NCBI GenBank assembly: GCA_964434265.1
Contig: CAYSUK010000001.1
Coordinates: 240,391 to 304,390, forward strand
Reading direction: 5' to 3'
From: an uncultured Christensenella sp.
GTDB lineage: Bacteria > Bacillota > Clostridia > Christensenellales > UBA1242
DNA length: 64,000 nt
In this document: positions 4,201 through 36,481 of the stretch, piece after piece
Position numbering within the stretch: position 1 is the first letter of the stretch
Layout of the letters: each line of letters starts with the position of its first letter
Program-made: the position numbers and the translations under genes
Notes under the pieces: model-generated
Database searches by the model: none
Told to the model about the DNA's origin: nothing
The model's input: the letters and a program-made list of their open reading frames with translations, nothing else

Positions 4201-4581
4201 CTATACTATTTCTTCTTCCTTAGGGAAATCCACCCCAAGCACATGAACATTGATACGATCAATTTTCATTTCTATCATTGACGCAAGACTGTTTTTAATG
4301 TTTTCTTGAACTTTGTATGCTATCTCAGACACATTGTATCCATAGTATACATTTAGATAAACATCAACATTCATAGAGTCATTGATATAGCTTATCTTTA
4401 CACCTTCATAGTAATTATTGCTAAACCAACGCATAAGCACAGAGCCAAAGTTTGCCACCAAGCTACTAACACCTGCTATCTCTTTTGTAGCAAGGTTTAT
4501 AACTGACAACACAATATTGCGGTCATAAGTCACTCTTCCCTTTGCGGGTTTATTAAGATAATTATTGTCTTTATATACCAT
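4201..4581 (-). CDS. Asp23/Gls24-family alkaline shock protein
   Basis: ORF track 4201-4614 starts at GTG; I prefer ATG at 4581 (MVYKDNNYL...); VSSLV...GVKI...VDVYL pattern typical of Asp23 family; conserved position after spoIIIAH. Confidence 0.8.
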   Translation of the reverse strand: MVYKDNNYLNKPAKGRVTYDRNIVLSVINLATKEIAGVSSLVANFGSVLMRWFSNNYYEGVKISYINDSMNVDVYLNVYYGYNVSEIAYKVQENIKNSLASMIEMKIDRINVHVLGVDFPKEEEIV

Positions 4582-21489: not shown

Positions 21490-22059
21490 TTATACTTCCA
21501 TAATGTCTTTTACTTTATTTGCACAAAGTTTGTCAAGACGTGCTATGCTATCGTCAATAGTTTTTTGAACGTCTTTTTCAAGTCTGTCATACTCGTCTTC
21601 GGTAATTGTCGAATTTTTCTTCATCGACTTAAATTCGTCAAGTGTATCCCTACGTGCATTACGTACGACAACTTTTGTGCTCTCAGTAAGCTTGTTTACT
21701 TCTTTTGAAAGTTCTTTACGTCGCTCTTCGGTAAGTTGTGGGAATACAAGTCTAATAACACGACCATCATCGCTAGGATTTACACCAAGATTTGCCGATT
21801 CGATGGCCTTTGATACATTTTTAAGTTGGGATATATCCCATACACTCACAAGCACCATACGCGCTTCGGGGACAGACACTGTCGCCATTTGGCTGACAGG
21901 AGTCATTGTGCCATAGTAGTCCACCATCACACGTTCGACAATACGTGGGTTTGCTCTCCCCGCACGTATTTGCAATAGCTCGTCAGTGTAATGCTCTATG
22001 GCTTTATCTATCGAACTTTGCATATCTTCTAAATATAGTTCTACTTCTTCGTTGTACAT
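21490..22059 (-). CDS. frr: Ribosome recycling factor
   Basis: Track ORF starts at GTG 22068; ATG at 22059 has a GGTGG SD 7 nt upstream; IRAGRANP motif. Confidence 0.95.
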   Translation of the reverse strand: MYNEEVELYLEDMQSSIDKAIEHYTDELLQIRAGRANPRIVERVMVDYYGTMTPVSQMATVSVPEARMVLVSVWDISQLKNVSKAIESANLGVNPSDDGRVIRLVFPQLTEERRKELSKEVNKLTESTKVVVRNARRDTLDEFKSMKKNSTITEDEYDRLEKDVQKTIDDSIARLDKLCANKVKDIMEV

Positions 22060-22089
22060 AATTTCCACCTTATTTATATAATATAACTA

Positions 22090-22223: not shown

Positions 22224-22248
22224 AACAAAAAAAGACCGCAACCGGTCT
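22224..22248 (-). terminator. Rho-independent terminator after the DGR reverse transcriptase
   Basis: Stem AGACCG (22233-22238)/CGGTCT (22243-22248), then U-run on minus strand (A-run 22226-22232 on +). Confidence 0.55.
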
Positions 22249-23276
22249 CACGCACACTTACAAAACATATCTTGCACTTTGCAAAAAAAATAAAAAGCAT
22301 CGCCTTTTCTAAACAGTCCCCCATAACTTATCAGCGAAAACTCTCTTTTTCTTGCTGACAATTTTTTTATACTTACAAGGAAACCAATATTTTTCACCTT
22401 ACACATAACACGTTTTTTTACAGCTCGCCTAAGTTTTTGAACAATCTCGCCGTCATCGGACATAAAAAAATTCCATCCCAAAAACGCAACTCCGTTTTTG
22501 AGTGGAAAGATGTCTGATTTAGGATTTAATATTAAGCGGTTTTTGATAAGCACATCCCCCGCCACATCAAAGCACAACTTTGCCGTCTTCTTATCGGGCA
22601 CAACCGCCACAATATCATCCATATATCTAATATAATGTTTGACCCCAAGCCTTTCCTTAAACATGCGGTCAAGTATATCAAGATAAAGTAGCGCTATACA
22701 CTGACTGGTCTGATTCCCCATAGGAAGCCCCTTGCCCGTGTCTGGATTATAACTGTCTAGTATCTCACATAAAAGTCCAAATATATTTGTGTCTTTGACT
22801 ATCTTACCTAGCTTTTGCTTTGCAAGCTCATGGTCGATAGAAGGAAAATATTTTCTTACATCAAGTTTTACAATGTACCCCGATTTTCCATATCTCTTGT
22901 AATGCGCCAACATAAACTTTCTAAGTCGACTTATCGCAAAACTCGTACCCTTGCCCACTCGACAAGCACTGTTGTCATATATAAGATGTCTCTCAAGTAA
23001 CGGTGACAAATAATTGTCGCAAAGCGAATGCTGTACAATGCGGTCACGATAAGATATAGCTTGTATCTCTCGCTCCTTTGGGTCGTATATGGTAAATTTG
23101 TGATACCCACCCACTTTGTATCTTCCATACTTTAAGTCATAATGAAGTGACCAAAGATTTTCCGACAAATTTGCTTCAAAAAGTATGACTTCTTTCTTGT
23201 GCCTTTTACTAAGCCGTGCTCGCCTATGTGCTTTGTAAAGACTCTCAAAAGATATAATATTTTCCCAATCAGTCAT
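22248..23276 (-). CDS. DGR-type reverse transcriptase
   Basis: Start trimmed to ATG 23276 (MTDWENII...; GGAGAG SD); RT motifs incl. YIRYMDDIVAV (YMDD) and LPMGNQTSQ, which fits the DGR-RT [ILV]GxxxSQ motif; adjacent TR/VR/Avd. Confidence 0.9.
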   Translation of the reverse strand: MTDWENIISFESLYKAHRRARLSKRHKKEVILFEANLSENLWSLHYDLKYGRYKVGGYHKFTIYDPKEREIQAISYRDRIVQHSLCDNYLSPLLERHLIYDNSACRVGKGTSFAISRLRKFMLAHYKRYGKSGYIVKLDVRKYFPSIDHELAKQKLGKIVKDTNIFGLLCEILDSYNPDTGKGLPMGNQTSQCIALLYLDILDRMFKERLGVKHYIRYMDDIVAVVPDKKTAKLCFDVAGDVLIKNRLILNPKSDIFPLKNGVAFLGWNFFMSDDGEIVQKLRRAVKKRVMCKVKNIGFLVSIKKLSARKREFSLISYGGLFRKGDAFYFFCKVQDMFCKCA

Positions 23277-23290
23277 ATTCTCTCCTTTAA

Positions 23291-23359
23291 AAACAAAAAA
23301 AACCATTGGGGAATAATCCACGTATGTTAAAGCATAGCCGTAACATATCACCAATGGTT
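23291..23359 (-). other. Structured element + U-tract between TR and RT start (terminator-like; candidate 3' end or structural part of the DGR RNA)
   Basis: 9-bp outer stem AACCATTGG (23301-23309)/CCAATGGTT (23351-23359), inner 6-bp stem 23324-23329/23341-23346; on minus strand followed by UUUUUUUUGUUUUU (23291-23300). Confidence 0.5.
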
Positions 23360-23469
23360 AGTCTTCTTCTCGCCACAAATATGTGACAAAAAAGGAAAAG
23401 ATTCCTTTGCTTCCAGATACACGATGCATGTGCCTACATACACCCGCTGACTTTTCTCTTTCGATAGGA

Positions 23470-23588
23470 GCAAATCGGGAACAGCGCCGTTTATCGGATT
23501 GTTGACATTGTTGTTGTCGTTGACATTGCCCTTATTGACGTCAGAGGCATTGTTGCTGTTGTTGTAATTAGGAGACCGAAGCCAAACA
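23470..23588 (-). repeat. DGR template repeat (TR), 119 bp
   Basis: Aligns without gaps to 24301-24419 (offset 831); A-rich on coding strand with 14 AAY codons; lies between avd and RT. Confidence 0.9.
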
Positions 23589-23637
23589 TAACCAAAGCAC
23601 CAATGCACTTTCATAACCTTTTCCTATATCACTAGTC

Positions 23638-24006
23638 TTAACTAGATGATACCTGTTTTGTAGTGCTCGCTATCCACTTGCCTAGATAATACAAACTCTC
23701 CGCTTGCATTTTTGAGATTTGCTCATATTGCTTAAATAAGATACACTCTTGTTCAAATGCAAGTTGAGCAAAATAATCTAGCATAGATAGTAGCCCCTTT
23801 GCTTTGTATTGCAATTCGAGCCTTCTACTTATATCCTTTTCCATATTGGCTAGATATATAGTCTCAATTGCATCAAGTATATAGTTTTGTAGTCTTACTA
23901 TCAATGTAAACCTAAATTTCTTAGGTGATTTTTCTGTAATTGTTATTATATATTTTGCTAAATCTTTTGTTTTAGTCATTACAAATAATTCGTTTTTCTT
24001 TTGCAT
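23638..24006 (-). CDS. avd: Avd-like accessory variability determinant (four-helix-bundle protein)
   Basis: 122-aa basic helical ORF (…KKFRFTLIVRLQNYILDAIETIYLAN…) between target gene and TR, as in canonical DGRs. Confidence 0.8.
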   Translation of the reverse strand: MQKKNELFVMTKTKDLAKYIITITEKSPKKFRFTLIVRLQNYILDAIETIYLANMEKDISRRLELQYKAKGLLSMLDYFAQLAFEQECILFKQYEQISKMQAESLYYLGKWIASTTKQVSSS

Positions 24007-24064
24007 GATATTATTTCCATTCTTTTGTTATAAAGTCTTACTTAAAAAAGTAACTTTGCTTTTT

Positions 24065-24100
24065 ATATGTGAATGTGCTCCGTTCGCACCAATCACATAT
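24065..24100 (-). other. Imperfect stem-loop in target-avd spacer
   Basis: ATATGTGA (24065-24072)/TCACATAT (24093-24100) with inner GTGC/GCAC. Confidence 0.4.
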
Positions 24101-24144
24101 GCACGAGATTGGCACTCCCATTATGGTCTTTTTTTATATCCTCA

Positions 24145-24173
24145 CGGCTCGTAAAATAGCCTTTTACGAGCCG
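24145..24173 (-). other. Perfect 12-bp stem-loop in target-avd spacer
   Basis: CGGCTCGTAAAA (24145-24156), loop TAGCC, TTTTACGAGCCG (24162-24173); no adjacent U-run. Confidence 0.5.
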
Positions 24174-24210
24174 AAATAAGGTTGTTTAATTACTTTCCTA
24201 TCTTTGCTCA

Positions 24211-24238
24211 CAATCGGGCGTAAAACGCCTTACGATTG
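24211..24238 (-). other. Bipartite stem-loop in target-avd spacer
   Basis: CAATCG/CGATTG outer stem plus GGCG/CGCC inner stem with a 3-nt bulge. Confidence 0.45.
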
Positions 24239-24269
24239 CTTCACAAAGGGATTATATGATACACAACGT

Positions 24270-24296
24270 CAGTCTGTTGGTTTCACCTACAGACTG
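24270..24296 (-). other. Hairpin immediately 3' of the VR (overlaps target stop codon)
   Basis: 8-bp stem CAGTCTGT (24270-24277)/ACAGACTG (24289-24296), 11-nt loop, no U-run; starts 5 nt past the end of VR/TR homology. Confidence 0.6.
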
Positions 24297-25927
24297 AGTT
24301 GCAAAGCGGGAACAGCGCCGAAAACCGGATAGTCGACACCGTCGAGGCCGATGCCACTGCCCATAAGGACGTCAGAGGCAATGTAGCTGCCGTCGCAATA
24401 AGGAGACCGAAGCCAAACAATACCACGATCTATCAACATAATATACACAGCATGTTCTTCGTTTGTAGGATCTAGCTCGCCTACTTGTGCCTCAATAAAT
24501 TCCTTAGTATATGTAATTGCTTTTGTCGCTTTTGCATAGTCAGAAGTGCTCCATATACGGGCGGAATCAGACACAGTACGGTCAGAATTAAAGCCGTATG
24601 ATGTATTGATAAGGTCGGCATAACTTAGTGCAAATACATAGTCGTTTGTATCTTCACAAGTGTATGGGTTTTCACCACTGTTATTTGTAGTTGTTGTATT
24701 TTTACTATTGTCTACTGTTGTAAGTTGGATAAGTGACTTTTGCTCTGATGTAAATGATTTCTCATAGAAATCACCAGTAAGGAAACTACGTAATTCACTC
24801 CATTTGTAGTTGTTGGCATATACTTGTACTCCATTATCGGTCAATATATTGCCACTAGTATCTGTAGCATAATAATCACTACCACTTCGAGTGTGATTTG
24901 ATTGATATGCCATGCCTTGGAGTATGGTGTCTGATGTAATTAGTGCTGTGCCGTCAGAATTACTTAGTATTCGCCATTTGATAGGCTCGACTTTAAAGTA
25001 GTAGTCAGAACCATTTTGCATTGCTGTGCCGTCACTAGCAACATTCATTTTGTATGCAGCCAAATCGTCCCAACTCATATCAAGAAGTTCTGCATCTTCT
25101 TCAGTATAATTTATTGTCACCTTGGCATAACGTTCACCGTCACTACCTAAATAGTAGCCGTCAGAGTCAGGTGTCGATGATGTGATTGTGACATCATCGG
25201 ACTTGATAGTTTGTGGGAATGAGCCAAAGGTAATATACTTACCGTCTTCGGATAATTCATATAGATTCTCTGTAGGGGCAAGTTCTTCAAAGTATGGTAT
25301 GAAATCTACGATAGTAGTAGGTACTTCTCCGCTCTCGCCATGGATTTGGCTTTGGATTACTACTCCTTTCATGGATATTGTACATTTTTGACCGCTGGCT
25401 GAATTGCCGAGTGAGTTTGGGAATGTGATAGGTACTGTGAATTTGATAGTAGTTCCGCTTGTAGTAGGTGTAAATACTTTTAGATTTGCTGTGTTTGATT
25501 TTTCTGCTAGGTACAAGTCACCATTGTATACTACCATGACTGTATCTGTAGACTTTGTGCCATTGATAGTGACGTCATATGTACTACCTGCGGTGAGTGT
25601 AAGTTTTGCGCCCGTAGAGCCTGCTTTGAGTGATGGGATTACTTTTAGTACTCCGCTTGTAGGGTCGCCATCTGTTCCGTTTTTCACTACAAGTGTAGTC
25701 TCTACATCGACTGTTTGGCTAGGCACGACTGTGAGTCCGTCGCTAGTCGCTACTGACACACCATTCTCGCCATCAAACTCGATTGATGCACCGAGTTTGA
25801 TTTCCGTACTGCCACTCTTACTATCGCCAAAGAATGCGACAGTAAGTCCGATAGTTGCACCGACGCATAGGACTAGTATGAGTGCCATGCAGACTAGCAT
25901 TTTGTGAAATTTAAATTGACTTTTCAT
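24287..25927 (-). CDS. DGR target (variable) protein: N-terminal TM/signal, beta-rich stalk domain, C-terminal lectin-like variable domain
   Basis: 546 aa; N-terminal hydrophobic helix ending ...TVAFFGDSK; FGSFPQT...IKWRILS...VFALSYADL...VWLRSP pattern as seen in Firmicutes DGR variable proteins; VR at extreme C-terminus; GGAGA SD. Confidence 0.85.
   Translation of the reverse strand: MKSQFKFHKMLVCMALILVLCVGATIGLTVAFFGDSKSGSTEIKLGASIEFDGENGVSVATSDGLTVVPSQTVDVETTLVVKNGTDGDPTSGVLKVIPSLKAGSTGAKLTLTAGSTYDVTINGTKSTDTVMVVYNGDLYLAEKSNTANLKVFTPTTSGTTIKFTVPITFPNSLGNSASGQKCTISMKGVVIQSQIHGESGEVPTTIVDFIPYFEELAPTENLYELSEDGKYITFGSFPQTIKSDDVTITSSTPDSDGYYLGSDGERYAKVTINYTEEDAELLDMSWDDLAAYKMNVASDGTAMQNGSDYYFKVEPIKWRILSNSDGTALITSDTILQGMAYQSNHTRSGSDYYATDTSGNILTDNGVQVYANNYKWSELRSFLTGDFYEKSFTSEQKSLIQLTTVDNSKNTTTTNNSGENPYTCEDTNDYVFALSYADLINTSYGFNSDRTVSDSARIWSTSDYAKATKAITYTKEFIEAQVGELDPTNEEHAVYIMLIDRGIVWLRSPYCDGSYIASDVLMGSGIGLDGVDYPVFGAVPALQLSL
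24301..24419 (-). repeat. DGR variable repeat (VR), last ~39 codons of the target gene
   Basis: 93/119 identity to TR; 25 of 26 mismatches at TR adenines (coding strand); invariant flanks VWLRSP and GGCGCTGTTCCCG. Confidence 0.9.
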
Positions 25928-26027
25928 TTGTTTTCTCCATTTTCCATTTTTATTCTACCCATATATGAGTGGATTTATATATATAATATAACTTATACTC
26001 TTTCTTGACATTATTCTATTCAAGTTT

Positions 26028-26059
26028 ATTATATGATACCCCCCCCCCCGCCTTGTCAA
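26028..26059 (-). promoter_or_regulatory. Candidate promoter of the DGR target gene with the G11 tract in its spacer
   Basis: Minus strand TTGACA (26054-26059), aggc+G11, TATCAT (26033-26038) overlapping TATAAT (26028-26033); spacers 15 and 20 nt. Confidence 0.35.
26039..26049. repeat. Homopolymer C11 (+) / G11 (-)
   Basis: Direct reading: cc at 26039-26040 plus ccccccccc at 26041-26049; I saw no other G/C run of comparable length in the window. Confidence 0.9.
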
Positions 26060-26160
26060 ATGAATTTGAGCAAGTTGTGGGAAAAAAGGAAAATTTTTTT
26101 ATAAAAAAACACTCTTCAAAGAAATGTCAAAAGTAAAAAAGGCAAGTAGTGCTAGGCTCA

Positions 26161-26193
26161 GAAAGAAAAAATAGCATGAGAATACTCATGCTA
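26161..26193 (-). terminator. Terminator-like hairpin in the tsf-DGR spacer
   Basis: 9-bp stem TAGCATGAG (26172-26180)/CTCATGCTA (26185-26193), U-run on minus strand. Confidence 0.4.
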
Positions 26194-26306
26194 TATGATT
26201 GGTATTTTTTCTTTCTAGAAACAACGCAATGCGCCGTCTTTTTTTATATCCAATCTCTCTTCAAGAAAATCTCAAACAAAACAAAAGCAAGAGAGACAAG
26301 GAAAAT

Positions 26307-26360
26307 AAAAAAATCAGGCCGGGAGCATACTCGATGCTATGTGACCTGCCTGATTTTTTG
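26307..26360 (-). terminator. Rho-independent (bidirectional-looking) terminator after tsf
   Basis: Outer stem ATCAGGC (26313-26319)/GCCTGAT (26348-26354) extended by A6/T6, inner AGCAT/ATGCT stem. Confidence 0.7.
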
Positions 26361-26384: not shown

Positions 26385-27029
26385 TTATTTTGTTTGAGCC
26401 ATAACTTCTTCTACAAAGTTATCCGATCTCTTTACAAGTCCCTCACCCATCTCATAACGTACAAAACGACGGATAGTGATTTTTTCACCGATAGTAAGGA
26501 TAGCTTCGTTTAGAAGAGCAGTGATAGTTTTGTCTGGGTCTTTTACATAAGTTTGGTCTAGAAGACAGTTTTCTTCATAGAACTTTTTGATACGACCTTC
26601 TACCATTCTTTCGATAATATTTTCTGGCTTGCCTTCATTTAGTGCTTGGTTGCGAAGGATTTCTTTCTCGTGTTCGAGTACGTCAGCAGGAACTTCGTCA
26701 CGGCTTACGTATTCTGGACGAGCAGCGGCAATTTGAAGTGCAACATTTTTGCAGAACTCTACAAATTTGTCTGATTTTGCTACGAAGTCTGTTTCGCAGT
26801 TTACTTCAAGCAAAACACCAATTTTGCCACCCATGTGGATATATGAAGTTACAAGACCTTCTGCAGCGATACGGTCCGCTTTCTTGGCTGCAGCAGCGAT
26901 ACCCTTTTCTCTTAGCCACTCAGTAGCTTTGTCTAGGTCGCCATCAGTAGCAACAAGTGCTTTTTTGCAGTCCATGATACCTGCATTGGTACGTTTTCTC
27001 AATTTTACAATATCGTCTGTTGTAAACAT
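26385..27029 (-). CDS. tsf: Elongation factor Ts
   Basis: 214 aa; [21 protein letters not shown]-like N-terminus; short Firmicutes-type EF-Ts. Confidence 0.96.
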
Positions 27030-31480: not shown

Positions 31481-34400
31481 TTATTTTTCTGACGTCTTCT
31501 TAATATAGTTTTTATAATATTCACAATTGCTCGACTTGATATAATTATCATAATACTTATCAGGCACATAGACAGAAAGTACCGTGCTGTTTTGTGGGAA
31601 AATGCGATAACTATAAGAAGAACTATAACCTACACTAGGTGGATTTTCCGATTGGAATGTGACAGATTGTAGCGTGCTTATATTAAAAGCACCGCCATAA
31701 ATATAAGTCACGTTACTAGGGATTGTGACACTTGTAAGTTTGGTACTAGCAAATGCACCTTCATATATAGTTTTGACTCCAGAGCCCAAACTCAATTTGG
31801 TTAGACTACTGCCATAAAATGCATATTTGCTGATACTTGTAACTCCAGATGGAATTGTTACACTTGTAAGATTTGTACCAGAAAAAGCATATTCGCCGAT
31901 AGTTTTTACTTTGTTTGGAATAGAAAACTTTTCAAGCTTATCGCAAGAACTAAAAGCACTATTTCCTATACTTTCTAGTTTTGGTGTACCACTAAATGAA
32001 ACCGTTTTTAAATTGTCGCAGTCATAAAATGCATAACCATCAATCCGTACAACGCTACTAGGAATAGTAACTGCAGTAATAGTGTCATTGTTGTAAAATG
32101 CACCGTATCTTATGCCATAGCTACCCGCAGGAATAGTAACCGATGTTGTTGTTCCGCTATAACTTATAATATACTTATTGTTGTCATTGCCTATTACATA
32201 GGTAAACCCACCACTATCAGTGACAATTGTTGTTGTTGAGGATTTGTTTACTATCTTTACTGCATAATATCCCACACAACCATTTGTCGAATAACTGTTG
32301 TTTATGGTCAGACTTGAAAGATTTAACACTTCAGCTAGTCGATAACAATAATCAAATGCATTATTTCCTATCGAAGTAACACCGGAAGGAATAACAATAG
32401 TTGTAATTTGTGAAAGGTATGCAAATGCGTACCCGCCTATGCTCACAAGCCTTGAGTTTGACCCAAACGAAACACTCTTCACACTATTACAATTGTAAAA
32501 AGCATTATTCCCTATTTTGGTGGTAGTGTAAGGAATAGCAAGTGAAGTAAGGTTTTTACAACCATAAAACGAATAGTTTCCTATAGTATTTAGGCCACTA
32601 GGGAATGTAACCGAAGTAATATTATAATTTTCATAAAACGCACCGCCACAAATACCATAGCATGAAGGTATAACAACTTCTTTTTCATTGCCATAATAAG
32701 CAACAATGTATTTGTTTCCATTATTTCCTACTATTGTTTCGTAGTCGCCTGATTTTTGAATAATACTGGAGCCACTTGTAACCAATCGTACGGCATTGTA
32801 CGCGACAAGTCCATTTTCTGTACTACCCATAGTTAGACTTAGATTTGAATAGTTTATGACTTCAGCCAATCTGTAGCAACCGGAAAATGCCGACTCGCCT
32901 ATTTCTTCAAGTCCAGAAGGAAGAAGAATAGATGTAAGATTTCTACAATAAGCAAATGCATAATTACTTATGGTAGAGAGTTTGCTTGTTGAAGCAATGT
33001 CTATATTATGTAGATTATGACAAGATGAAAATGCTGACCTACCAATAGATTCTACACTAACAGCAATTTGTATAGTTGTTAAATTGCCACAATCATAAAA
33101 AGCACTACTACCAATATACTTGACTCCGTTTGATATTGTGAGATTTTTTATACTATCACGATCATTAAAAGCACTTTCACCTATTCCAACCACATTACCA
33201 GGAATAGTGACATCTGAAGTTATACTACCTTGATAAAAGGCATAAGGTTTGATATAGTATGAGCGATTTGTAGGAAGAAGGAATGATCCTTCATATTGAC
33301 CACATAGATAGGTCTTTCCATCATCGCCTACTATATATTTGTAGTCTCCAACACTTTCGACTATACTTTTTCCAGAATTTACAGACCTAACAACATAAGA
33401 AGAAGTTATTTCCAAACTTGATTTGTTTATTATTTCTGCAAGACGATAACAATCTCTTAAAGCCCAAGACCCAAGACTTGTAAGAGTGCTTGGCAATGTG
33501 ATGCTTGTGAGCCTATAACAACTATAAAAAGCATTGTCACCTATAGAAGTAGTTCCTTCAGGAATAATTATACTAGTTATGTAATTACAATAACAAAATG
33601 CATTACTCCCAATACTTTGTAAAGATGTATTATTTCCAAAAACAACATTTGACAAGTCGTAACAATTATAGAATGCCGATGATCCAATAGTCCCTATAGT
33701 ACAATTATCAGCAAATGTGAGTGTGGTCATATTGCCACATGCCCCAAAAGCCGAAATACCAATAGTATCAATCGTGGAATTATTTGCAAATGTTACAGTC
33801 TCTAACTCATAGCAATTATAAAAAGCATAAGATCCAATACTGGTTATGTCCGAATTCGCACTAAAGGAAACTGATTTTAGTCCATTATAGCAATATGCAA
33901 AAGCATAGTCAGAAATAGATTGTAATTTTGCTGAGAAATGCAAATTGCCTGAGAGTTTGCAATGATAAAAGGCATAAGTTCCGACCGAATCGAGATACAT
34001 ATCGTCATTTATTGTTATGTAATAAGTAATAGAATCATTATAGTATTTATCTAGCGTCTTGTAAAAAGCCTTTTGCCCTATACTCTTAAGGCTTGATGGC
34101 AATTGTATTGTAAGATATCGCGCACATTCGCTAAAAGCAAAATCGCCTATTTCTTTAAGGGCAGCCGTCCCCTTAAATGTGACTGTACCTAATTTCTCAC
34201 AGTTTGCAAAAGCATAATTTCCGATGCTATTAAGCACACTTCCACTTGCAATAGTAACACTTGCAAGATTTTCAAAACCACTAAATGCATAATCCGAAAG
34301 CGAAGTGACATACTTAGGTATGTTTATCGTAGTAAGGAAGGTATATGGCTTTATCCAATCAAGACTGGTAAGTTGTGAATTGTCTGGAATAATTATTTCG

Positions 34401-36481
34401 GTGAGAGCATCACAATTTGAAAAAGCATTGTCGCCAATATCTACAAGGCTACTTGGAATTGTTATACCAGGCAAACTTACACAACCATAAAGAGCCCTAC
34501 TGCCCAATTTATTAAGTTTGCTATTTGATGCAAAAGAAATATTTGCAAGACTTGTACAACCATTAAATGCATCAGCGCCTATTGTTTGTACACTGCTTGG
34601 AATGGTTATGCCAGTCAGTGCCGTACAATATGAAAAAGCATTATTGTCAAATGAACTTATTGCACAATTTGTACCAAATTTGACCGTACTTAGGTTTGTA
34701 CAATATAAAAATGTATTTGAAGATATCGCTTGCAAAACTGAATTTGCAACAACTTCAAAAGTTTTTAGTTGGTTACAATTATAGAAAGAATACGACTTAA
34801 TAGTTTTGACTGTCTTTGGAATTATTATGTTTTCCAATGCAGTACAATCTTTAAAAGCGTACTCTGATATAGTTTCCAGTTTTGAATTTGACGCAAAGTT
34901 TAGTGTTGTGAGTCCGCGACAATTTGCAAAAGTGTATGGTTCGATTTTGTTAAGTTTTGCATCTTCTACCATCGAAAATGTTTGAAGGCTGTTACAGTTA
35001 TAAAATGAGTACGCATACATATTTTCTACATTTTTAGGAATGGTGATTCTTTGCAATGAATTACAATAACCAAATGCATACTCACCTATACTTTTAAGGT
35101 CAGAATTGGTCGCAAACTCAACACTTGACAGTCTCGTACAATTATAGAAAGCGTAAGCACCGATATTTTGCACACCGCCAGCCACATTGATATTTGTCAG
35201 GCTAGCACAATTTGCAAATGCATATTCATCTATATTTGTAACACCTGTTGGAAAAGATATCGACGTAACAGTCGAACCATTGAAGGCATTATTTTTTATG
35301 CGATAGACATTATCTGTAGGCAAAGCAAGTTCGTATTGATTTCCCATATACCCAATCAAATATGTCTCGTTGTTGTCGCCTACTACATAATAATAATCGC
35401 CATTTTTTTCTATCTCGCTCCAATCAATCTCAGATATACGCACAGCATATTTGGCAATTTTGCCGTATGCATCGCTTCCTAGCGACAAATCAAGCTCGGA
35501 CAGATTTAATATTTCACTCAAATGATAACATTGGGTAAAAGCATTATCCGAAACAACCGAGACACTGGCAGGTACAGTAAAACTCATAAGTTTTTTGCAA
35601 TTATAAAACGACCTATTGCCTATACTTTGTAGTTTGGAATCAGGCGAAAACCACACGCTTTCGATAGTGTTGTTATTTGCAAATGCATTGTCGGCAATAC
35701 TTTTTATTATATATCTCGAACCTTCTATATTTGCGAATGCAGGGACAGAAATTTCACTGCCAACAAATGAATCATCAATACCCGTCAATATTGCACTATT
35801 TTTATCATCTGAAAGTGTATATGTAAGTGAAGATGTATAACTTATTGGCGTAGTCATAGTATCAAAGTATGGTTTGAAGTCTGTAACTGTCTTGAGTCTA
35901 TTTAGACGAGATGCACTATTTATCATCTTTCCAGTAAGTTGGATACCTATTTTTTGACCTTCTACTTCTTCGGGCAATTCGTCAGCGAATGTTATTGTCA
36001 AAGCAAACGTGATAGTCATGTCTTTAGTGTTTGAAGGCAATGTATACATCAAGGTATTGTCAAGTGCATCAACCAAATACAAACATCCGTCTTGCACAAC
36101 AAGCACCGCTGTCGTCAATTTTACCTTATTGATTGTTACTTCAAAAGTAGTTCCGTCTTCATATCCTGAAAGATAATCAACATAACTATCAAGATTTTCA
36201 AGATCAAATCTAAATATTCCCTTTGAATCGTCTTGGCTATCAGAATTAACTTTGAATGAGATGTACACATCTCTTTTATCACCGGCTTCGATTGTTATGT
36301 CGTTATTTTTAGTGGAAGCCAATCCGGTCAATCCGTCATATACTATGTTTGCGTTTATGTGGAAAAAATCATCTTCTTTTGGTTCGACAAAAAACAAAAA
36401 AACAACAGCTACGACTGCTATTATCGCCATCACTAAAAATATTAAAAAACTGTTTGATCTTGTTCTATATCTCATAAGCAC
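31481..36481 (-). CDS. Giant BspA-type leucine-rich-repeat surface protein (1666 aa) with N-terminal membrane anchor
   Basis: Dozens of ~23-aa repeats (IP.sV.sIG.yAF..C..L..I.f); N-terminal TM helix; no SD seen; start GTG 36481 or ATG 36475. Confidence 0.85.
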   Translation of the reverse strand: MLMRYRTRSNSFLIFLVMAIIAVVAVVFLFFVEPKEDDFFHINANIVYDGLTGLASTKNNDITIEAGDKRDVYISFKVNSDSQDDSKGIFRFDLENLDSYVDYLSGYEDGTTFEVTINKVKLTTAVLVVQDGCLYLVDALDNTLMYTLPSNTKDMTITFALTITFADELPEEVEGQKIGIQLTGKMINSASRLNRLKTVTDFKPYFDTMTTPISYTSSLTYTLSDDKNSAILTGIDDSFVGSEISVPAFANIEGSRYIIKSIADNAFANNNTIESVWFSPDSKLQSIGNRSFYNCKKLMSFTVPASVSVVSDNAFTQCYHLSEILNLSELDLSLGSDAYGKIAKYAVRISEIDWSEIEKNGDYYYVVGDNNETYLIGYMGNQYELALPTDNVYRIKNNAFNGSTVTSISFPTGVTNIDEYAFANCASLTNINVAGGVQNIGAYAFYNCTRLSSVEFATNSDLKSIGEYAFGYCNSLQRITIPKNVENMYAYSFYNCNSLQTFSMVEDAKLNKIEPYTFANCRGLTTLNFASNSKLETISEYAFKDCTALENIIIPKTVKTIKSYSFYNCNQLKTFEVVANSVLQAISSNTFLYCTNLSTVKFGTNCAISSFDNNAFSYCTALTGITIPSSVQTIGADAFNGCTSLANISFASNSKLNKLGSRALYGCVSLPGITIPSSLVDIGDNAFSNCDALTEIIIPDNSQLTSLDWIKPYTFLTTINIPKYVTSLSDYAFSGFENLASVTIASGSVLNSIGNYAFANCEKLGTVTFKGTAALKEIGDFAFSECARYLTIQLPSSLKSIGQKAFYKTLDKYYNDSITYYITINDDMYLDSVGTYAFYHCKLSGNLHFSAKLQSISDYAFAYCYNGLKSVSFSANSDITSIGSYAFYNCYELETVTFANNSTIDTIGISAFGACGNMTTLTFADNCTIGTIGSSAFYNCYDLSNVVFGNNTSLQSIGSNAFCYCNYITSIIIPEGTTSIGDNAFYSCYRLTSITLPSTLTSLGSWALRDCYRLAEIINKSSLEITSSYVVRSVNSGKSIVESVGDYKYIVGDDGKTYLCGQYEGSFLLPTNRSYYIKPYAFYQGSITSDVTIPGNVVGIGESAFNDRDSIKNLTISNGVKYIGSSAFYDCGNLTTIQIAVSVESIGRSAFSSCHNLHNIDIASTSKLSTISNYAFAYCRNLTSILLPSGLEEIGESAFSGCYRLAEVINYSNLSLTMGSTENGLVAYNAVRLVTSGSSIIQKSGDYETIVGNNGNKYIVAYYGNEKEVVIPSCYGICGGAFYENYNITSVTFPSGLNTIGNYSFYGCKNLTSLAIPYTTTKIGNNAFYNCNSVKSVSFGSNSRLVSIGGYAFAYLSQITTIVIPSGVTSIGNNAFDYCYRLAEVLNLSSLTINNSYSTNGCVGYYAVKIVNKSSTTTIVTDSGGFTYVIGNDNNKYIISYSGTTTSVTIPAGSYGIRYGAFYNNDTITAVTIPSSVVRIDGYAFYDCDNLKTVSFSGTPKLESIGNSAFSSCDKLEKFSIPNKVKTIGEYAFSGTNLTSVTIPSGVTSISKYAFYGSSLTKLSLGSGVKTIYEGAFASTKLTSVTIPSNVTYIYGGAFNISTLQSVTFQSENPPSVGYSSSYSYRIFPQNSTVLSVYVPDKYYDNYIKSSNCEYYKNYIKKTSEK

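Follow-up and report, generated by a model that had tools for sequence, protein, structure and literature searches.

A G11 tract in the promoter spacer of a DGR target gene from an uncultured Christensenella sp.: a probable slippage-prone switch

In the stretch of 64,000 bases analyzed here (referred to as the window), a run of 11 G residues lies on the minus strand between a perfect −35 hexamer and two overlapping −10-like hexamers, upstream of the target gene of a DGR. The question that this locus raises is whether the run makes transcription of the target changeable, is a static part of the promoter, or has no consequence. In our view, with a probability of roughly 0.7, it is a hypermutable homopolymer in the promoter spacer, of the porA/opc type, which would tune or switch the transcription of a DGR-diversified surface protein. 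A sigma-A (sigma-70-type) promoter with the G11 tract in its spacer would drive the membrane-anchored protein, slipped-strand mispairing at replication would add G residues to the tract or remove them, and the altered distance between −35 and −10 would change target transcription, either stepwise or in an on/off manner. Such switching would be frequent and reversible in this organism.

The promoter and the DGR cassette

The minus strand reads TTGACA-AGGC-G11-TATCAT/TATAAT, with spacers of 15 and 20 nt, about 100 nt before the target ATG, which confirms the arrangement given in a preliminary description of this DNA and places an uninterrupted homopolymer of at least about 8 nt between a recognizable −35 and −10 (Table 1). 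The ATG of the 546-amino-acid target ORF, at position 25927, is located 100 nt past TATAAT and has GGAG in front of it. That no other long G/C homopolymer is present in the window, as had been claimed, is also correct, since the run (C11 on the plus strand) is the sole run of six or more G or C residues within the 64,000 bases, and a run of 11 or more is expected by chance about 1e-3 times per window under an iid model. The GC content, previously put at about 33%, was measured as 36.5%.

Table 1. Coordinates of the promoter, DGR, and terminator features in the window
Feature	Position	Strand	Basis or remark
−35 hexamer TTGACA	26054-26059	minus	perfect consensus, read directly
AGGC, nonrepeat part of the 15-nt spacer	26050-26053	minus	read directly
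G11 homopolymer (C11 on plus strand), 3' part of promoter spacer	26039-26049	minus	read directly; run census
TATCAT, −10 hexamer abutting the tract; spacer 15 nt at G11	26033-26038	minus	−10 by homology with the family
TATAAT, second −10-like hexamer overlapping TATCAT; spacer 20 nt at G11, 17 nt at G8	26028-26033	minus	candidate −10
A/T-rich, UP-element-like region upstream of −35	26060-26110	minus	putative function; A/T-rich upstream DNA common to homologous promoters
Predicted 5' UTR of about 95-100 nt, with GGAG ribosome-binding site before ATG	25928-26027	minus	sequence reading
DGR target gene, 546 amino acids, N-terminal membrane anchor/signal, C-terminal DUF6273 variable domain	24287-25927	minus	
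Variable repeat (VR), 3' end of target gene	24301-24425	minus	TR/VR comparison
Stem-loop of 8 bp (CAGTCTGT ... ACAGACTG) overlapping target stop codon	24270-24296	minus	position of DGR hairpin downstream of VR
bAvd accessory gene	23638-24006	minus	PF22296, E = 1.8e-8
Template repeat (TR)	23470-23594	minus	TR/VR comparison
DGR reverse transcriptase (RT)	22248-23354	minus	RVT_1, E = 1.4e-16
Terminator-like hairpin and T run between tsf and target promoter	26171-26194	minus	sequence reading and scan
tsf terminator	~26305-26354		sequence reading and scan

The generic promoter scanner accepts spacers of 16 to 18 nt only, and the G11 promoter was missed by it because its spacer is either 15 or 20 nt. 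The scanner did return weaker promoter-like matches just downstream of the tract, such as ATGTCA-17-TATTAT at 26011-25983, and the preliminary description had offered TTGAAT-17-GAGTAT (26023-25995) as an alternative promoter. Together with the noncanonical spacers at G11, such matches speak for a reading in which the core promoter in use excludes the tract and the tract, if it acts at all, does so by shifting an upstream activator or UP element relative to that promoter, in the manner of the Bordetella fim promoters discussed below. We consider this improbable, because it is the TTGAC/TAnnnT pair flanking the G run that is conserved, whereas the downstream candidates, TTGAAT-17-GAGTAT among them, are weak and have no counterpart in homologous loci. 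Moreover, a perfect −35 beside the tract would be unexpected for an activator-dependent promoter of the fim type.

That the downstream gene is a DGR target, as previously proposed, is well supported. A comparison of VR with TR shows 28 mismatches over 125 positions, and 26 of these fall on TR adenines. The RT and bAvd genes lie beside the TR/VR pair, the target ORF carries VR at its 3' end, and the DGR is intact. It has in common with BPP-1 mtd-type DGRs the RT, bAvd, the adenine-specific TR/VR differences, and a post-VR hairpin, the variable domain here being a C-terminal DUF6273 domain. The stem-loop at 24270-24296 presumably has the role of the corresponding hairpin in BPP-1-type DGRs. An N-terminal hydrophobic anchor combined with the DGR-diversified DUF6273 domain marks the target as having a surface-exposed or contingency function, and DUF6273 is reported as a DGR target domain in papers on DGR targets and gut phages (PMC10743442, PMC11792537). 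A role of the tract in DGR homing was considered and rejected, with the tract lying 1.6 kb from VR and most tract-bearing homologs having no RT within 4 kb; a G-quadruplex was likewise rejected, there being only a single G run.

The window is part of a bacterial chromosome, in which every large ORF is on the minus strand, SMC, IF-2, and topoisomerase I are encoded, and the gene order around the tract is rpsB, tsf, DGR, frr, uppS, cdsA. The terminator-like hairpin between tsf and the target promoter, in addition to the tsf terminator itself, would insulate the target from read-through. The whole cassette (22248-26059) sits between tsf (26385-27029) and frr (21490-22068), a place usually occupied by pyrH in bacteria, and no pyrH is found there. 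The target genes of relatives are similarly embedded in housekeeping neighborhoods, as in locus L102, where a sigma-70 gene lies on one side and rpsL on the other.

Several minor features of the promoter region were noted. The best promoter-like match of the region is on the opposite (plus) strand, namely, TTGACA-16-TATTAT at 26005-26032 (11/12), and would start transcription approximately at the C11 run, away from the target and antisense to the 3' region of tsf; it may be due to chance, because the total of promoter-like matches equals the shuffle expectation. The 11-mer TATCATATAAT of the double −10 recurs at 24251-24261 (minus strand), 26 nt past the target stop codon, immediately beyond the post-VR hairpin and ahead of avd, and this second copy may be the −10 of an avd-TR-RT transcript. 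The motif GGATATAAAAAAAGAC is present at 26229-26245 and at 24125-24141 (minus strand), that is, in both intergenic regions flanking the target gene, and this repeat may reflect chance in A/T-rich DNA. An Rfam search of the window and eight tract-bearing loci revealed no riboswitch or leader family in the 5' UTRs.

G runs in the promoters of homologous targets

Relatives of the target were identified by an alignment-based scan of genome contigs, a scan with the single protein having given none, and they come from MAGs labeled Clostridia, Eubacteriales, Christensenellaceae, Bacilli, and Mollicutes. A TTGAC element followed by a sense-strand G run at or near the −10 precedes DUF6273 target homologs in at least 13 other loci, drawn from Clostridia/Bacilli MAGs and SRA assemblies. 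In the closest retrievable ortholog, P0005 (55% identity), the promoter reads TTGACA-cacccGGGGGAGGGGGGG-TAAAAT and stands at the same distance from the start codon.

The specificity of this association can be judged from a census of G/C runs in 619.5 kb, comprising the window and 81 related loci. Runs of 5, 6, and 7 residues number 198, 30, and 3, respectively, after which there are 10 runs of 8 to 15 residues. Of these 10, nine are flanked by TTGAC and TAnnnT on the sense strand (TTGAC..Gn..TAnnnT). Eight of the nine are followed by a DUF6273 target homolog, and for the remaining one (L013) the contig stops short of any gene downstream. The tenth run, the misfit, is a second G9 in L008 (positions 4252-4260, GTGTGTGTGTG-G9-ATTGG, MAG CAYWFC01), which follows the target gene at a distance of 106 nt, in a context that is not promoter-like. 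Additional G-run promoters, beyond this census, came from SRA and ENA contigs.

Across the family, tracts of 6, 8, 9, 10, 11, and 15 residues were found, as well as an interrupted form of 5+A+7. The spacers range from 14 to 20 nt with a mode of 16 nt, the individual counts being one of 14 nt, four of 15 nt, eight of 16 nt, one each of 17 and 18 nt, and two of 20 nt. Of 13 homologous promoters, 9 have a TAnnnT hexamer immediately next to the G run. When ten promoters are aligned, TTGAC is invariant, and apart from A/T-rich upstream DNA only TTGAC, the G run, and the −10 T are conserved. Since these promoters are highly diverged except for TTGAC, the G run, and the −10, the run itself is what is kept. 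G-tract promoters cluster among the nearest relatives of the target; a G run of at least 6 residues within 400 nt was present in 6 of the 63 homologs with enough upstream sequence (L003, L006, L008, L009, L010, and L028), and two more (L034 and L048) have one 0.3 to 0.7 kb upstream. Tract-free homologous promoters (L004, L012, and L015) have ordinary spacers of 17 to 18 nt, and the sigma-A spacing rules therefore appear to be normal in these bacteria.

Conservation of this kind could also be read in a static sense, with the G run serving as a fixed promoter element next to the −10, whether as the binding site of a regulator, a rigid A-like spacer, or an incomplete extended −10 (G at −14), and with the length differences described below being incidental drift without a switch. 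As a whole, we think this reading, the main alternative, unlikely, although several observations speak for it. Several species (L010, L013, L034, L048, L102, and L107) share an almost unchanged block TGC-G8-TAnAAT with a 16-nt spacer, and of the nine contigs sampled for two G8 genes, eight have exactly G8 (four of four samples for P0048 and four of five for P0061). This recurrent form counts against the slippage reading, as it shows that short tracts are fairly stable, and it may point to a sequence-specific role of the run. Furthermore, the run is confined to the sense strand and in most cases adjoins the −10, and a short G6 version occupies the same place in L113 and L114. Against a static element stands the variability of its geometry, as run length varies from 6 to 15 residues, the offset from the −35 varies from 0 to 9 nt, and in four promoters 3 to 6 other bases follow the run. 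A fixed site would also need no uninterrupted homopolymer, a sequence type that is otherwise avoided in these genomes.

Some loci show further features. The tract-free promoter of L004 (~2420-2470) begins with TTGACACTATG, as does the G11 promoter of L095, and where the G run would be, it has repeated palindromes resembling a repressor operator (GTAACATAATGTTAC, TGTAACAATATGTTACA). Long leaders (0.3 to 0.55 kb) that are GC-rich and apparently structured follow some G8 promoters (L034, 3131-3667; L048, 3082-3796; L107, 782-1200), and no Rfam family matched the two of these covered by the search, those of L034 and L048. A DNA-pattern scan of a metagenome collection without this species, using the promoter flanks from the window, yielded 11 unrelated ordinary promoters without a G run. 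A scan of IMG/VR gave one distant relative only, the G6 of which is a ribosome-binding site, and the target subfamily is essentially cellular and not phage-borne.

Tract-length differences in near-identical DNA

Further information on the behavior of the tract came from comparisons of genes that encode exactly the same protein in different samples. L100 has G10 where L101 has G8, with one other mismatch in 1,593 bp; L107 to L110 have G8 where L111 has G9, with no other difference in 2,709 bp; and L095 to L097 have G11 where the contig of L098 starts with 12 G (at least G12), the 1,623 bp being otherwise identical, with the proviso for all these values that homopolymer lengths in short-read MAG assemblies may be off by one. 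The sources of these differing tracts include SRR33013287 (G10) and SRR33036515 (G8), ERZ15845372 (G9) and ERZ15235816 (G8), and SRR33036523 (at least G12). Of five contigs of the P0012 gene, two break at the tract, the fifth contig starting just after it, although contig breaks at G runs can stem from poor Illumina coverage or sequencing chemistry and not from heterogeneity. Short tracts are steadier than long ones, and this length dependence fits the prediction for slippage. From these comparisons we infer that the tract is a mutational hot spot in the homologous loci, and a tract indel as the only or nearly only difference in near-identical DNA, the signature of such a hot spot, is a further point against a static element; taken with the spread of lengths and positions, it favors mutability as the property under selection. 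The earlier suggestion that a slippage-prone spacer homopolymer adds a second layer of variation to this protein is thus supported by both the conserved G-tract promoters and the length differences in near-identical DNA.

Polymorphism of tract length was seen in the homologous promoters, whereas at the locus of the window itself the only possible sign of it is a contig break after 10 G. This break is found in an independent k-mer assembly of the same species (Logan SRR10277277, contig L001), the only other assembly of the species that was found, in which tsf and the DNA downstream of it are identical to the window until the contig stops inside the tract. Either the assembly graph branches or coverage is lost at this point. 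Since L001 ends inside the tract with 10 G, the run exists in the reads. In the same run, the contig L002, which carries avd, RT, and frr, begins at window position 24203, 84 nt downstream of the target stop codon, so that neither of the two flanking contigs contains the target gene; its absence is consistent with heterogeneity at both gene ends, that is, at VR and at the G tract.

The preliminary description had named an assembly or polishing artifact as one of the outcomes that would undo its proposal. An artifact, or a chance sequence without consequence, would be in keeping with the error-prone nature of homopolymers, with the origin of the window from a metagenome-assembled contig, and with the single other assembly of the species. 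However, that independent assembly also shows 10 G or more at this position, and an artifact is ruled out by the recurrence of G-run promoters in at least 13 independent loci, the assemblies of which come from different groups and tools. Chance is countered by the low expectation of such a run per window and by its position exactly between consensus hexamers. We therefore regard this explanation, in either form, as highly improbable.

Returning to the slippage switch, the assembled G11 state is probably one of low expression, because the spacer to TATCAT, at 15 nt, falls one nucleotide below the family mode of 16 nt. It was previously proposed that a gain of two G or a loss of three G would turn the promoter on by producing a 17-nt spacer. 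That requirement is a hypothesis, since by homology TATCAT is the −10 and the family mode is 16 and not 17 nt, so that one extra G would already reach the family-mode spacer. With the two overlapping hexamers, G12 to G14 would give 16 to 18 nt to TATCAT, and G7 to G9 would give 16 to 18 nt to TATAAT. It is possible that there are two permissive windows in this promoter, at approximately G7 to G9 and G12 to G14, with a trough at G10 to G11. On the other hand, a spacer of 15 nt may not be OFF in the family, because the modal spacer is 16 nt and 15 nt occurs four times.

Comparison with known systems and a possible two-tier module

Tract-length slippage in the promoters of other bacteria, to which the preliminary description had referred, is illustrated by two examples. 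For the Neisseria meningitidis porA promoter, 11 G between the −35 and −10 result in high expression, and 10 G and 9 G result in 2.2-fold and 13-fold less protein, respectively (PMC3639595). The porA and opc promoters share with the one described here a tract of about 9 to 14 nt (poly-G, or poly-C in opc) between −35 and −10, a sigma-70-type promoter, and a surface protein as product. In both porA and opc, tract length sets the spacer and expression is graded, a relationship that is proposed for the promoter described here. Differences lie in the host, which is an uncultured low-GC gut Firmicute and not a Gram-negative pathogen, in the controlled gene, which is itself hypermutated by a DGR, and in the two overlapping −10 hexamers, which could give two permissive length windows. 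In the second example, the fim2, fim3, and fimX promoters of Bordetella pertussis and Bordetella bronchiseptica, a C stretch of 7 to 19 residues is polymorphic among strains, and its length alters transcript abundance (PMC1891110). Similar to the G tract, the fim stretch is a long homopolymer conserved across the promoters of a paralogous family of surface-structure genes. However, it spaces the BvgA activator site from the −10 in promoters without a consensus −35, whereas a perfect TTGACA flanks the tract here and TTGAC is invariant in the family.

Two layers of surface-protein variation are also known from a low-GC, Firmicute-related lineage. The vlp genes of Mycoplasma hyorhinis are switched ON and OFF through a poly-A tract in the promoter spacer, and the protein itself is varied by a separate mechanism. 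That second layer is variation in repeat number, and with it size, and not adenine mutagenesis by a retroelement, and the tract is poly-A and not poly-G.

Searches of the literature on DGRs combined with phase variation, homopolymers, or poly-G found no promoter homopolymer or phase-variable control of DGR targets. While the class of mechanism is classical, a systematic association of it with the DGR targets of gut Firmicutes seems not to have been described, and little is known so far about the expression control and functions of chromosomal DGR targets. A broader proposal, which we put forward tentatively, is that a conserved and selected G-tract promoter and a DGR form a two-tier contingency module in an uncultured clade of gut Clostridia and Bacilli, with two permissive length windows at the locus described here. 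In such a module, the slippage switch would govern whether the protein is displayed or at what level, and the DGR would govern what the protein binds. A conserved mutational switch in front of DGR targets would imply that display is costly or risky, for instance because the protein is a phage receptor or an IgA target, and populations would then hedge on both expression and binding specificity. Phase variation through promoter spacers, classically known from a few cultured pathogens, would thereby also reach the abundant uncultured Firmicutes of the gut. The signature, TTGAC followed by G8 or more and TAnnnT, can be counted directly in metagenomic reads, and this would allow switching to be followed in vivo.

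Paralogs of the target are present in the same genome, with P0003, P0004, and P0010 on one NCBI contig of 362,787 bp; P0009 and P0002, the latter from a second strain, are on other contigs. Two paralogs are full-length DUF6273 proteins (84% and 57% identity) that differ in their VR-region sequences, and one is an LRR protein whose N-terminal 200 amino acids are nearly identical to those of the target. These relationships suggest that there are several DGR targets and a shuffled N-terminal module, and the paralog promoters may carry the same tract. Within the window, the minus-strand gene at 31481-36481, which has no G/C tract upstream, encodes a 1,666-amino-acid leucine-rich-repeat adhesin-like protein with HupY/LrrG-like and Gli349-like segments, the N-terminal region of which shares 28% identity with residues 43 to 216 of the DGR target.
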